DNA of 62,223 bases, filler included, from Nitrospirae bacterium CG2_30_53_67 (GTDB lineage Bacteria; CG2-30-53-67), in the NCBI GenBank assembly GCA_001873285.1. It is 6 parts of 6 records of this genome, joined end to end, with 100 filler letters (N's around TTAATTAATTAA, not from the genome) between each part and the next. Parts side by side here need not be neighbours in the genome. Positions count along the whole stretch, not along the records: positions 39,854 to 43,826 come from MNYV01000160.1; positions 43,927 to 56,691 come from MNYV01000132.1; 4 more parts are not named here. One strand, written 5' to 3'. A program made the position numbers. This document shows, one piece after another, positions 42,001 to 45,000 of this stretch; within the stretch, counting starts at the first letter, position 1; each line of letters begins with the position of its first letter.

Positions 42001-45000
42001 GACCGCCCCGGCCCGCGCCACCTCCCGGCCGACCTCCAGGGCCGTGCGGTTGGTCTTTTCTTCATCCCGGCCTGAGCCGATAACCCCGATTTGTAACATC
42101 ATCAGCCCCTGGAATACTCTGAATCCGGCTTATGGTTCTGTCTGTGTTTCAGGATTGGAAACCACTTCAGGTAAGACCCCGTTCGTTACTCGGCAATCGG
42201 GCTTTCCCCGATCCTGCCGAGTATCCTGGCCGCCTCGACCACCACCCGGTTGTCATTGTCTTTGAGCGCCTTCATGAGCAGGGGGTGCAGGCGCTCGTAA
42301 TCGTTGAGGCTGCTCAATGAGAGGACCGTCCGGAGCCGGACATCCGGATCCTCATCCTCGAGGGCATTCAGCATGGCATCCATTTCCCCGCTGAGATCTC
42401 CCTGGGTCAGGATGTTGAAGAAATCCATCTGCTCGACCTCGCCGAGATCGAGCGTGGGCCGCGCCATTCGCACCTTCTCGGCCAGCCCATGCCCCTCGAT
42501 GGATGCCTGGGAGAGGAGATTGACCACCCGATCCGGGAAATTCATCTTCCCGATCATGGTGGAAATCCGAGTAGGCCTCCCCTCTTCGAGTTCATAGACA
42601 CCGGTGTAGACCGCGGCCCCGTGCGTCTGGTTCTTAAGCGAGCGGTTGATCCGTTCGTACACCTCGGCAGGGGTGGATGCCAGCACGCTTTTCGGGGCAT
42701 AGAGGATCATGGCGATGACGGCGGCCGTGGTATAATCGTAGCCTGAGGCAAAGAGGTCCCCGCCCTTCCAGATCGCCTTCATCTGCTCCATGAGGAGATC
42801 CTCGGTCAGCGGGCCCGTCATGTTGAAGCTTGTGGAACCGTAGATCAGGAGCCCTCGAGAAGAGAAGACCTTCCTGAAATCTTCGCTGTCGAAGCTGATC
42901 AGGCTCCGGATCTTGTAGGCATGGTCGGCCCGGTTGAAGTCATCGAAGCTCTTGACGATCCGCTCGTTGGCCCGGACATAGTACTCGGAGAGGCTGACTC
43001 CCGGGAAAAAGTCCAGAATCTTTTGATTGTCGATCAGAACCACGCTGTTCAGGTTCTGTCTGAACAAGGTATTGACGGCCTGGATGGCGTTCACCTTGGT
43101 CAGGCTGCTTTCGCTTTCCGCAGGAAGGGTGATCAGCACGGAGATGGGCAGGTTCAGGGGACGCAGGATCTCGGCCAGGGTCGGGAGATTGCTCCCGGTC
43201 CCGCCTCCCATGCCCGCGACCATAAGAAAGAGGTCCGAAGACTTGGCCGGCTCACTGAGAACGCTCAGGATCCGGTCACGGTTGGAAAGGAGGCTCTGCT
43301 TCCCCAGATTGAGATCCCTCCCCGCTCCGCTCCTCCCGTCCAGCCCCACATGGAGCCGGAACTCCTTGGGGAGTTCTTCCAGGCTCTTGAGGTCGGAAAA
43401 CGACGTATTCAGGGCAAAGGACTCGTAGCCCCGCTTGGCGAACTCCACGGCCAGATTGCCGCCGCACTGTCCCAGGCCGATCACGCTGATCTTCAGCCTT
43501 TTTCTGAAATCCTTGAGCTTCTCTTCCGCAGGTTTCATGGAGATCCCCCCCCCGATGCATTCCCCCATCCCAGGGCCGCACCTCACCGCAGGGCAGAGGA
43601 AATTTCTGATGATCATCACTGAAAAGCTGGATGCGGTCCCGGACCCATCGGCCCGCATCGTATCAAATCAGGGTTGGAGGTGTCAAGGACTTCAGTATGA
43701 GTACCGGGCGTTCTCCGGACTGCTCATGACCTTTGACCGGATCGAGATTAGCCCAATAAATTTCTCCTCTCAATATTCGGGCCATTCGCCTTTTTCCCCT
43801 GAGAAACCTTCCTCAGCAAGCGCCTGNNNNNNNNNNNNNNNNNNNNNNNNNNNNNNNNNNNNNNNNNNNNTTAATTAATTAANNNNNNNNNNNNNNNNNN
43901 NNNNNNNNNNNNNNNNNNNNNNNNNNACCCCTAATTCCTGCTTCCAGCGTCCCAGAACGTTGGGATGTATTCCCAAATTCCGGGCGGCCTCAGATACTTG
44001 ATACCCTTGTTCCGTTACCAGCTTTACTGCTTCTTCTTTGAATTCTTTTGAATGCTTACGTCTTCTTTGCTTGCTCATGGGACACCTCCTGAGTTATTAA
44101 TAATACACTCTTAAGAAAGTGTCCAGAAATACTCTACCACCTCACCCTCACCCCACGTGGGGGAGATGGAACGTTTGAGAAGGGCAGACCCAGGTAAAAA
44201 CCATCCAAAGTCTCCGGGATATTTGATATCTCGGAACCGCCGATAGATCAGGCTGTTCTATCGGCGGTTTTTTATTTAAGAGCTCTCATGGTAGAAAGAA
44301 ACTGCGGTTGACACATTGATCCTGTTCGCGTTATAAGATTCATCACGATGACCCGATCATTGAGCATTTTGACCCCCAATCCTGTATTGCCGGCCGCGGA
44401 TGTTTTGATCTATACGATAGGTCATGGGAACTGGTCTCTTGAGGATTTTCTTGCGCTTCTCAATGAATTCGGCATCCAATATCTTGTGGATGTTCGGTCA
44501 CTGCCGGGTTCACGCAAGCATCCGCTGTTCCATATCGTTGCATCTGGTAAACTGATGGAGCATCATCTCAGTACCTTGGCACGGAAACAAGGAGACAGTT
44601 TGGTCTATGACCTGCAGTCACAGAAACAACTTGAATTTGAATGAGAAAGCAAAGTTATGAAATGGGAATAAGATGATCCGGATCGGGACCTGTTCGTGGA
44701 CGGAGAAGAGCATGATACAGAGCGGCGGGTTTTATCCCGGTGAGGCCCGTTCGGCTGAAGAACGGCTCCGGTACTACGCCGGTAAGTTCAATACCGTGGA
44801 AGTGGATTCCAGCTACTATGCGATCCCTTCAGTGAAGAACGTCCAACTCTGGGCGGAACGCACCCCGGAAAATTTTCTGTTCCATATCAAGGCCTATGGC
44901 GCGCTTACCGGGCATGGCATTGATCCCAAGAACCTCCCCGGAGATCTGGCGGATCTGCTCCCTGCACAGGAAAAGAACAAGCAATACATCTACATCAAGG

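Follow-up and report, generated by a model that had tools for sequence, protein, structure and literature searches.

To our knowledge, bacterial tubulin homologues of known role are few, comprising FtsZ, which acts in division, TubZ and PhuZ, which move plasmid and phage DNA, and BtubAB. TubZ/RepX are type III partition GTPases of Bacillota (4ei7, 2xka), borne on plasmids or phages with an upstream TubR gene, and their C-terminal end, a basic peptide, is the partner-binding part. CetZ proteins (4b45, 4b46, 3zid) act in archaeal cell shape and are chromosomal paralogues found beside FtsZ. FtsZ itself has a layout of a core, a disordered linker of variable length and a terminal interaction module. 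FtsZl1 and FtsZl2 (Tubulin_2, PF13809) are sparse, chromosomal and uncharacterised bacterial members of the superfamily, and FtsZl1 has conserved operon partners according to the accessible part of Makarova and Koonin 2010 (PMC2875224).

The gene analysed here comes from an uncultured groundwater bacterium (genome of 2,365,998 bases in 183 contigs, 95% complete) and lies on a contig of 3,973 bp (positions 39854-43826) of the window, the stretch of 62,223 nucleotides under analysis, in which six contigs are joined by N spacers. Its product has the GTPase core and TubZ-like C-terminal domain in common with TubZ/RepX, and its tail, like the end of TubZ, appears to serve as the partner-binding part; however, a linker and two folded HEAT repeats make up this tail, and the loci of relatives are chromosomal and without a TubR-like gene. 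Like CetZ it is a chromosomal paralogue beside FtsZ, but bacterial and not archaeal, and neither the HEAT module nor the motif that follows the core was seen in the CetZ matches. The fold, the GTPase motifs and the core-linker-module layout are common to FtsZ. FtsZl1 and FtsZl2 are comparably sparse, yet the protein has no Tubulin_2 match at E<=0.01 and a full C-terminal domain, and the FtsZl1 operon partners named in the accessible part of PMC2875224 are absent from the loci of its family. The family belongs to none of TubZ, CetZ, FtsZ and FtsZl.

We found no published paper on the family and none naming PF22453, the Pfam model of the TubZ-like C-terminal domain. The accessible main text of Santana-Molina et al. 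2023 (PMC9871819), figures aside, does not refer to paralogues from Myxococcota, Fibrobacterota or Nitrospirota, and four signature motifs of the family are absent from the available part of its supplements. With no name among the homologues and nothing found in print, the family can be called uncharacterised, as the preliminary description had it.

Two tubulin-superfamily genes and the start of the second

PF00091 matched exactly two proteins of the genome, FtsZ on contig C22 (179.8 bits) and the TubZ-like/HEAT protein on C120 (68.4 bits). The former scored 429.7 bits against the equivalog model TIGR00065 (cut-off 295.2) and lies in a dcw cluster of the order murF..murD-ftsW..murC-murB-ddl-ftsQ-ftsA-ftsZ; score and gene order thus agree with its earlier naming as the canonical FtsZ. 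The latter reached only 80.2 bits on TIGR00065, gave no FtsZ_C match at E<=0.01 and is located outside dcw, and it was rightly described as a second, non-FtsZ GTPase of the superfamily.

Its open reading frame was present where claimed, at 42186-43658 on the minus strand (as are all features below), and encodes 490 aa with Tubulin, TubZ-like_C and two HEAT repeats. The former 460-aa call with a start at 43568 should be revised, as should a start at 43658, because alignments of orthologues from the host's taxonomic family (f1), the frame of genome G008, conservation at the N-terminus and an indel in a public contig together make ATG 43538 the most likely start, giving a coding sequence of 42186..43538 and 450 aa. 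In six of the seven f1 orthologues the alignment begins at residue 36-44 of the 490-aa frame, the orthologue of the same-genus genome G005 being the one that begins at residue 4; in G008 the frame is open over exactly 450 aa, and MKP..EK starts are kept among orthologues. The 40 codons in frame upstream (43539..43658), conserved within the genus only and probably untranslated, include a run of G that varies by an indel at 43545, and since one nucleotide is missing there in the public contig, any frame starting further upstream would break. It should be added that the Pfam positions reported previously refer to the 460-aa form and are 30 below the 490-aa numbering.

The gene is under purifying selection, with dN/dS of 0.09-0.17 against six orthologues over its whole length and of 0.11-0.17 over the HEAT part. 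RNA run X23 contained 0.05 of the sampled words and one contig of 151 nt lying within the gene; this signal is too small to claim expression, and the RNA library may hold DNA.

Architecture of the GTPase core and its tail

All three Pfam domains claimed for the protein were recovered above the Pfam cut-offs. The Tubulin/FtsZ GTPase domain (43008..43493; PF00091 7.2e-18, 66 bits with the cut-off at 33, residues 56-217 of 490 aa) holds the T1 loop GLGQCGGN (43455-43478), the T4 signature GMGGGTGSN (43188-43214) and T6 LIDNQK (43020-43037). It is followed by the TubZ-like C-terminal (activation) domain (42516..42905; PF22453 3.2e-09, 37.4 bits with the cut-off at 26, residues 252-381 of 490 aa). 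The stretch SFDSEDFRKV (42867..42896), which from its alignment position relative to FtsZ and TubZ we take to be the T7-loop region, includes an invariant acidic residue, D257, and a second one, D260, that is kept in at least 90% of the sequences. As previously reported for a smaller set, G152-G153-T154-G155, N84, D210-N211 and D257 (490-aa numbering) were invariant and D260 nearly so, here in 53 aligned sequences, in which the whole GGGTG loop and the T1 glycines were invariant as well. The long helix that follows the final strand (42468..42533, residues 336-357 of the 450-aa form), delimited by the AF2 model and by conservation, has E348 invariant and A345, G349 and K355 near-invariant in the 450-aa numbering.

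The AF2 model (mean pLDDT 84.8, pTM 0.74) consists of a confident core, with pLDDT mostly 87-97 in the GTPase domain, a disordered stretch at residues 358-383 and four terminal helices. Its best Foldseek matches were 4ei7, 4b46, 3zid, 2xka and 4b45, so that TubZ and CetZ lead as in the earlier model, and fold matches to TubZ, CetZ and FtsZ ranged from about 1e-22 to 1e-21 in E. Sequence identity to the studied filament formers is 20-26%. A complex prediction of two cores (residues 1-360) with GTP and Mg scored 0.00 against a mark of 0.42 and was given no weight either way.

The disordered stretch corresponds to a flexible linker (42390..42467, pLDDT <50), which in relatives spans 24 to about 380 residues and is mostly of low complexity. 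Within this low-pLDDT part lies a family-wide motif, PTLDLGEVEQMDFF (42417..42458), of the consensus P-x-L-D-[LI]-[GS]-[EG]-x-[ED]-x-[ML]-[ED]-[LF]-F; in the 53 aligned sequences its L column is kept in 51, the D column in 47 and the F column in 43. This conserved LDL..E....LF motif, read from the alignment, is a new observation.

The C-terminal HEAT domain was likewise borne out, and its terminal four-helix module (42207..42389) corresponds to two repeats: HEAT_2 matched residues 427-485 of 490 aa at 5.3e-09 (36.7 bits, cut-off 27.7) and HEAT scored 28.2 bits (cut-off 23.5), alphaRep HEAT designs matched with E down to 5e-39, and AF2 placed the four helices at residues 384-444. A first, conservative model built from the host's clade detected a HEAT-like module at the end of 46 of 170 family tails, and after two iterations it was detected in 102 of 170, ending within 12 residues of the C-terminus in 97 of these 102. 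The iterated model could have drifted, as the conservative round reached only the 46 tails; the 56 added ones matched the HEAT profile in hhalign with 94.6% probability (E 7e-08). Consequently, the forms from Deltaproteobacteria/Polyangiaceae, formerly listed as HEAT-less, mostly appear to end in a divergent HEAT pair missed by Pfam, and the description holds for the Latescibacteria, which truly lack it. In the Fibrobacteria forms the pair is absent and a conserved short C-terminal peptide is found instead. Judged by these profiles, a HEAT pair at the C-terminus occurs beyond the host phylum, and divergent copies close most Myxococcota members, which is also new.

Placement within the superfamily and distribution

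The family profile matched RepX 4ei7 best among PDB sequences (1.4e-40), followed by CetZ 4b45 (1.5e-31) and 4b46 (6.5e-29) and by FtsZ from 4.1e-26. The alignment with RepX covered positions 6-339 of the 448 in the profile, through the C-terminal domain into the following helix, and 4ei7 was the top Foldseek match too. The best single-sequence match of the protein within the tubulin fold was CetZ2 4b45 (3.2e-19, residues 56-385), and Bacillus thuringiensis TubZ was not among the best 60 sequence matches of the family profile. The proposal that the core is nearest to TubZ/RepX and CetZ, and not to FtsZ, is therefore supported by profile, whereas structure alone barely separates them: Foldseek gave E 1.4e-22 for TubZ/CetZ versus 3.4e-21 for FtsZ, with TM on target of 0.76-0.81 versus 0.79 (0.74-0.81 over the CetZ structures).

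In the phylogenetic tree the family formed one clade (support 100/99), recovered in 100% of 200 bootstrap trees, and stood as a separate clade and not inside that of TubZ/RepX. Together with plasmid TubZ/RepX and other TubZ-like_C proteins it grouped to the exclusion of verified CetZ1-like rows with moderate support of 88/95, branch support being what this exclusion stands on; reference rows were checked (CetZ1 2.7e-176, RepX 4.7e-90). Inside that larger group, the branching of the family relative to plasmid TubZ had support of only 76/69 and 71/72. The longest inner branch separates the family from FtsZ, in a tree where archaeal rows are few, eukaryotic tubulins are absent, a single FtsZ family serves as outgroup and long branches meet at the root.

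The family profile found the gene in eight of the 14 genomes of the phylum, namely in 8/9 of family f1 and in 0/5 of family f2, and its absence from one f1 genome and all five of f2 indicates that it is non-essential to the lineage. The four of 13 given previously rest on another measure. Orthologues with 72-88% identity were found again in seven of the eight other f1 genomes, and the figure of 335 homologues at E<=1e-3 is comparable to the 354 obtained here when 7,999 candidates were scored. Of 185,579 species genomes, 184 carry the family, and its Myxococcota branch alone comprises more than 441 clusters; of the members recorded under the organism name of their source, none comes from an isolate. 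All 80 loci retrieved for inspection (80/80) were bacterial. The ESM Atlas gave only a cluster of the protein's own kind, with 51 members (Tubulin in 100%, TubZ-like_C in 43%, HEAT_2 in 20%), the commonest taxon being Myxococcota. The family is widespread in soil and groundwater lineages.

Gene neighbourhood

Because the gene's own contig measures only 3,973 bp, the statements that it is chromosomal and has no TubR both depend on relatives. A chromosomal location cannot be read from the host contig, but is upheld by relatives on contigs from 45 kb to 7.3 Mb (45-62 kb in f1; outside f1 as long as 3.75, 6.9 and 7.3 Mb), with one record bearing chromosome in its title. Housekeeping genes flank these copies, among them greA, ZnuABC, NfeD/SPFH, a ClC channel and the suf operon, whose synteny is kept over 19 Fibrobacteria loci. 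Among the loci of relatives no neighbour gene conserved across clades was found, and hence nothing in them indicates the binding partner of the HEAT pair.

The claimed lack of a TubR-like partner was reproduced, as no small gene is conserved upstream in the relatives' loci. The host contig itself offers only 168 bp upstream; a contig of run X11 extends 2,479 nt past its end at 43826. In plasmid TubZ controls, a gene of about 100 aa ends between 4 bp inside and 22 bp before tubZ in 6/6 loci. Some mechanically called small ORF was present upstream in 31 of 71 family loci, alike between near relatives only, and the f1 loci differ from one another in their upstream genes. When 37 such ORFs were scanned with Pfam, 36 had no match and one matched RsfS, but this is a weak test since the control TubR-like proteins were matched in only 1/6. 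Plasmid records matching the family numbered 63 of 72,556, with none above 34% identity, and among 50,697 phages only phage G matched (29% identity).

Immediately downstream and on the same strand lies a gene for a 150-aa SLOG cluster4/TIGR00725 protein (41650..42102; LDcluster4 1e-45, TIGR00725 146 bits). It was found downstream on the same strand in seven of the eight tubulin-bearing f1 genomes, within 300 bp in five of them, and as a conserved neighbour it is limited to f1. The SLOG protein was rejected as an obligate partner, being non-adjacent in G006, absent from the loci of all other clades and present in four of the five tubulin-less f2 genomes. Neither a DEAH-box helicase gene cut by the contig end (39854..41534, TIGR03817-like), which adjoins the SLOG gene in the host genome only, nor a 40-aa MazF/PemK toxin gene remnant just upstream (43663..43785; PemK_toxin 3.3e-09, profile positions 2-29 of 109) is regarded as part of the system.

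Proposed function and alternative explanations

The explanation we consider probable is that the family is a distinct, uncharacterised chromosomal branch of the tubulin/FtsZ superfamily in bacteria, related to plasmid TubZ/RepX and lying outside any plasmid-partition operon, whose members form filaments driven by GTP and bearing a tethered adaptor. The protein has four parts: a complete GTPase/activation core, the long helix, the LDL..E....LF motif opening the flexible linker, and the terminal HEAT pair. The core would bind GTP and assemble head to tail; each subunit would supply its T7 acidic residues to the GTPase site of its neighbour, and dynamic filaments would result. The tethered HEAT pair may act as an adaptor that links the filament to some cargo or anchor whose gene lies elsewhere in the genome, by the same core-linker-adaptor logic as for the C-terminal peptide of FtsZ or the TubR-binding tail of TubZ, and the motif after the core may bind either the adjacent subunit or a partner. 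That the protein hydrolyses GTP and polymerises, that the HEAT pair is an adaptor, and what the cellular function would be are all predictions from these comparisons, as is the reading of the family as a tubulin cytoskeleton.

The likeliest alternative is a division role, with the protein as a divergent FtsZ paralogue in or beside the divisome, for instance as a second Z-ring component or an FtsZ regulator. Its FtsZ-like layout, a fold equally near to FtsZ (TM on target 0.79) and to TubZ/CetZ, the invariable co-presence of a normal FtsZ, and single members fused to an FtsA/PilM-like domain or to a ParA/MinD-like ATPase would fit; we nevertheless consider it unlikely given the score of 80.2 against 295.2 bits on TIGR00065 without FtsZ_C, the location outside dcw and the separation from FtsZ by the tree's longest internal branch, while the patchy distribution (184/185,579 species genomes; 0/5 in f2) opposes a core role in division. 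Loss of polymerisation, leaving a GTP-binding monomeric or dimeric regulator, would agree with filament assembly being deduced at 20-26% identity to every studied filament former. In the superfamily, T7 residues are required only at the interface between subunits, and their retention together with all nucleotide-contact loops over 53 diverse sequences makes such a loss improbable.

Equally improbable is that an integrated plasmid or prophage left behind a DNA-partition motor of type III (TubZRC) whose adaptor gene was overlooked. RepX as best profile match (1.4e-40), the TubZ-like_C domain, the grouping with plasmid TubZ-like proteins and not CetZ (88/95), and the mere 168 bp upstream on the host contig, holding a MazF remnant, a gene type common on mobile DNA, all speak for it. 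The adaptor gene of about 100 aa seen in all six plasmid TubZ loci, however, has no conserved counterpart in 71 family loci; the flanks are housekeeping genes on contigs of up to 7.3 Mb, with suf synteny over 19 Fibrobacteria loci, and plasmid and phage relatives are all at or below 34% identity. Similarly improbable is a conflict or defence system that depends on NTP, in which the protein would be the component that assembles and the variable C-terminal modules would be effectors or sensors. HD, ParA-like, NTF2-like and HEAT modules on a conserved NTPase core resemble the architecture of such systems; Firmicutes and Actinobacteria have GTPase-centred conflict systems that include tubulin homologues, according to the accessible part of PMC7159879; and the gene's neighbours in the window are a MazF remnant, a SLOG protein and a helicase, the last with PADLOC matches to BrxHI (3e-50), PsyrT (4e-25) and PsyrA (1.2e-06). 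Yet the protein itself matched 0/5,027 PADLOC models, the vWA, GAP1-type GTPase, HSP70 and FNIII components named in that part of PMC7159879 were absent from the 36 + 9 scanned neighbours, the helicase and MazF remnant adjoin the gene in the host genome only, and stable, vertical, housekeeping synteny and purifying selection argue against it.

A chromosomal family with its own adaptor architecture would suggest an unexamined cellular job for a TubZ-like filament and point to a further kind of bacterial cytoskeletal filament. Going further, and tentatively, one may picture a third chromosomal tubulin cytoskeleton of bacteria beside FtsZ and BtubAB: a TubZ-like cytomotive filament of ancestral core, LDL..F motif, elastic linker and HEAT adaptor, which in Myxococcota, Fibrobacterota, Latescibacterota and the host's groundwater lineage would position a cellular cargo or a machine of the envelope, a picture that we hold to be doubtful in its full extent. 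The family also bears on the origin of plasmid partition tubulins, as it could be the chromosomal stock from which plasmid and phage TubZ motors were recruited.

The exchange of terminal modules between members, namely of the HEAT pair, FtsA/PilM-like, ParA/MinD-like, NTF2-like and HD modules and short peptides, offers testable hints at partners. At the position of the HEAT pair, other members carry PilM_2/FtsA, ParA/MinD-type AAA_31, Cds6_C NTF2-like or HD_5 modules.

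Two tubulin genes in the genome

PF00091 matches two genes in this genome. One of them is ftsZ on contig C22, the last gene of a murF..murD-ftsW..murC-murB-ddl-ftsQ-ftsA-ftsZ cluster, with a product scoring 429.7 bits on the FtsZ equivalog model (cut-off 295.2). The other encodes the TubZ-like/HEAT protein, whose 490-aa ORF (42186-43658, minus strand) gave Pfam matches to Tubulin (7.2e-18), TubZ-like_C (3.2e-09, above the cut-off) and HEAT_2 (5.3e-09). The figures given in the preliminary description for homologues, invariant residues, PDB profile matches, model confidence and fold were all closely reproduced on re-run.

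The window was composed of six contigs (1-21905, 22006-26051, 26152-39753, 39854-43826, 43927-56691 and 56792-62223), separated by N spacers that contain a ttaattaattaa linker, and genes on either side of a spacer therefore need not adjoin in the genome. The gene is located on the fourth contig (39854-43826; C120 of this genome, 3,973 bp), which carries three genes, all on the minus strand: a DEAH-box helicase gene (39854-41534), truncated at the contig end, a gene for a 150-aa SLOG cluster4/TIGR00725 protein (41650-42102) and the TubZ-like/HEAT ORF, upstream of which just 168 bp are present.

Start codon and gene integrity

The most likely start of the protein is ATG 43538, giving 450 aa, as judged from orthologue alignments, the conserved MKP..EK start and a base deletion in a public contig. 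Six of the seven orthologues from f1, a taxonomic family of the phylum, align with the long ORF from residue 36-44, and that of the same-genus genome G005 from residue 4; the open frame of one f1 orthologue measures exactly 450 aa. The contig from X10, a public groundwater run, omits one base of the poly-G tract (at 43545), slightly upstream of ATG 43538; every longer frame would be broken by this deletion, whereas ATG 43538 is unaffected. The indel represents strain variation within the probable 5' untranslated region.

Intact orthologues (72-88% identity) were found in eight of the nine f1 genomes. The dN/dS ratios against six f1 orthologues were 0.09-0.17 for the whole protein and 0.11-0.17 for the HEAT part, with dS above 1 and saturated in five of the six pairs; the closest pair had a dS of 0.37 and a ratio of 0.17. 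The same DNA was present in 22 groundwater/aquifer metagenome runs at >=94% of sampled words, four of these runs being possibly its source. An RNA library contained a single identical 151-nt contig within the GTPase domain, which is insufficient for a claim of transcription.

Placement in the superfamily and distribution

In the single-sequence search the best solved relatives were, in order, CetZ2 (3.2e-19), FtsZ and RepX. The profile of the family, i.e. of the bacterial clade of chromosomal TubZ-like proteins homologous to this one, ranked RepX (1.4e-40, through the C-terminal domain), CetZ2 (1.5e-31), CetZ1 (6.5e-29) and FtsZ (from 4.1e-26), matched phage TubZ 4xcq at 5.5e-18 and did not have B. 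thuringiensis TubZ among its best 60 matches. TubZ, CetZ and FtsZ were barely distinguished by fold comparison. A tree of 63 rows was calculated with 30 family proteins, 20 distant TubZ-like_C relatives, six plasmid TubZ proteins (including pBtoxis TubZ and a verified RepX-type row), three verified CetZ1-like proteins and four FtsZ proteins as outgroup. The family was supported at 100/99 and was recovered as one group in all 200 bootstrap trees; together with plasmid TubZ and the distant relatives it grouped without CetZ at 88/95, the inner order not being settled by support. Since sampling is thin and long branches meet at the root, "TubZ-like, own branch" is the fair label.

Relatives are encoded in 184 of 185,579 species genomes, with 106 clusters at 50% identity matching at E<=1e-30; a search with one Polyangiaceae member returned 441 clusters at 90% identity (E<=1e-30). 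Among the 120 proteins listed per search, organism names were those of MAGs only, and the other names were automatic "FtsZ"-type labels. Within the phylum, the gene occurs in eight of 14 genomes, all belonging to f1.

As judged from part of the 2010 article (PMC2875224), the FtsZl families are Tubulin_2 proteins with operons of their own, and the present family is neither of them. We found no papers naming PF22453 and no literature on the family. Such paralogues do not occur in the main text, figures aside, of the broadest recent survey (Santana-Molina et al. 2023, PMC9871819), and the four signature motifs of the family are absent from its supplement text, part of one file excepted. The C-terminal domain has an existing Pfam model, and the fold family is thus a known one; as far as visible, no description exists of the clade of chromosomal proteins, its core-motif-linker-HEAT layout or its module swapping.

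Protein anatomy and C-terminal tails

The AF2 model (pLDDT 84.8, pTM 0.74) comprised, in the 450-aa numbering, a confident core (residues 12-335), a long helix after the last strand (336-357), a low-confidence stretch (358-383) and four helices making up two HEAT repeats of the alphaRep-design type (384-444). The T1 glycines, N44, the GGGTG loop, D170-N171 and T7 D217 were invariant in 53 diverse family sequences, and D220 of the T7 region was conserved in >=90% of them. In the post-core helix E348 is invariant and A345, G349 and K355 are near-invariant. Directly behind it we found a family-wide motif, P-x-L-D-[LI]-[GS]-[EG]-x-[ED]-x-[ML]-[ED]-[LF]-F, absent from the preliminary description, with L, D and F conserved in 51, 47 and 43 of the 53 sequences, respectively. 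Being short, conserved and within a region that AF2 cannot place, it looks like a binding peptide.

Tails behind the core were taken from 177 family proteins, a non-random set of best search matches, and 170 of them had >=30 residues. A model built from the HEAT ends of this clade matched 46 of the 170, and 102 after two iterations, 97 of these matches ending <=12 residues from the C-terminus. Because iteration can drift, the 56 added tails, mostly from Myxococcota, were checked as a profile against the original HEAT alignment: hhalign of their last 72 residues gave 94.6% probability (E 7e-08, 70 columns), and the D.D..VR..A..AL pattern was plain in both profiles. The core-to-HEAT spacer ranged from 24 to about 380 residues, mostly of low complexity. 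On sequence grounds, the HEAT tail is a trait of the family rather than a local fusion.

The forms from Polyangiaceae and Latescibacteria had been described as HEAT-less. In view of the divergent match in the added tails, most of the former have a HEAT pair of divergent sequence at the end of a long tether; Latescibacteria members do lack HEAT, their short tails stopping soon after the post-core motif. Fibrobacteria members end with a conserved YSLEEYV(K/R)LKK-type peptide instead of the HEAT pair. Other C-terminal modules among 64 proteins scanned were PilM_2/FtsA-like (one protein, P0123, 818 aa), ParA/MinD-type AAA_31 (one, P0162), HD_5 (one, P0173) and Cds6_C NTF2-like (five: P0152, P0156, P0157, P0164 and P0170). 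These fusions are possible hints to the types of partner with which the predicted filament works. Of the more distant relatives, one has an N-terminal glycosyltransferase and two have inteins; in the latter (P0212 and P0235, both >950 aa) the tubulin domain is interrupted by an intein that includes a LAGLIDADG homing endonuclease.

Predicted mechanism and alternative readings

In FtsZ, tubulin and TubZ, T7-type residues reach into the next subunit and trigger GTP hydrolysis. All GTP-binding residues, and these T7 residues as well, are retained in the TubZ-like/HEAT protein, whose core would thus be predicted to bind GTP. A non-polymerising GTPase is one alternative; T7 residues are useful only at a subunit-subunit interface, and GTP-dependent head-to-tail filaments are hence to be expected. 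The tail would be organised as in FtsZ (linker and C-terminal peptide) and TubZ (TubR-binding tail), with a flexible tether of variable length leading to a small conserved protein-binding module, and evolution would have swapped this terminal module for other binding or positioning modules. By the same tether-plus-module logic, the HEAT pair probably serves as an adaptor to a cargo or anchor whose gene lies elsewhere; a possible role of the post-core motif is to hold adjacent subunits together or to bring in a second partner. We consider such a GTP-dependent filament with a tethered HEAT adaptor, the whole of it inferred, to be reasonably probable.

An integrated partition system was also considered. 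In all six plasmid tubZ loci compared, a gene of ~100 aa has its end no more than about 20 bp from tubZ; no conserved counterpart was seen at the family loci. Plasmid records yielded no family members (63 of 72,556 matched, each at <=34% identity), nor did phages, where the sole match was phage G at 29% identity. That match is gene 138 of Bacillus phage G (JN638751.1, 78698-79342; residues 16-232, E 3e-22). Relatives were found on contigs as long as 7.3, 6.9 and 3.75 Mb, the last in a record with "chromosome" in its title. As to a divisome-linked FtsZ paralogue, the protein scored 80.2 bits on the FtsZ equivalog model vs the cut-off of 295.2. A conflict-system component would draw on the adjoining genes: PADLOC matched the SLOG protein to PsyrA (1.2e-06) and the helicase to BrxHI (3.1e-50), SngC (2.7e-49) and PsyrT (4.4e-25). 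The adjacency of SLOG cluster4 and DEAH helicase genes is confined to this genome, and the tubulin-bearing conflict systems reported in 2020 have, in the part of that source covered (PMC7159879), other neighbours than the family loci.

Genomic context

Flanks in f1, seen on contigs of 22-62 kb, vary by genome (ClC channel, NfeD/SPFH, ZnuABC, S49 peptidase, cytochromes c7, histidine kinases, DUF6982), and the SLOG gene alone is recurrent. In seven of the eight tubulin-bearing f1 genomes it is found downstream in the same orientation, at <=300 bp in five; in genome G006 the tubulin gene has no adjoining SLOG gene. It was not found beside the tubulin gene in any locus of other clades examined, and its orthologue is present in four of five genomes of the taxonomic family f2 without the tubulin gene. 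We interpret the adjacency as inherited synteny rather than as a sign of partnership. In G005, a 132-aa DUF6982 protein (L019:9042-9440; 4.8e-27) is encoded directly upstream of the tubulin gene, an arrangement that no other examined f1 locus showed.

No neighbour family was common to several clades in the 80 loci taken from other species genomes. In 19 Fibrobacteria loci (L028-L046 and others) sufS and a NifU-like gene come before the family gene in the same orientation; an acyl-CoA dehydrogenase gene comes after it in 17 loci (16 from Fibrobacteria, and L039). In ten Myxococcota loci greA is upstream on the opposite strand.

Directly upstream of the tubulin gene in this genome there is a MazF/PemK toxin remnant (43663-43785, minus strand), a 40-aa N-terminal quarter (PemK_toxin 3.3e-09, profile positions 2-29 of 109), preceded at the contig end by a possible tail of an antitoxin gene. 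The two look like a decayed toxin-antitoxin pair, found beside the tubulin gene in this genome only. A public contig of 4,319 nt from run X11 spans 41987-43826 and continues 2,479 nt past the contig end at 43826, so that the upstream context of the tubulin gene is present in public data.
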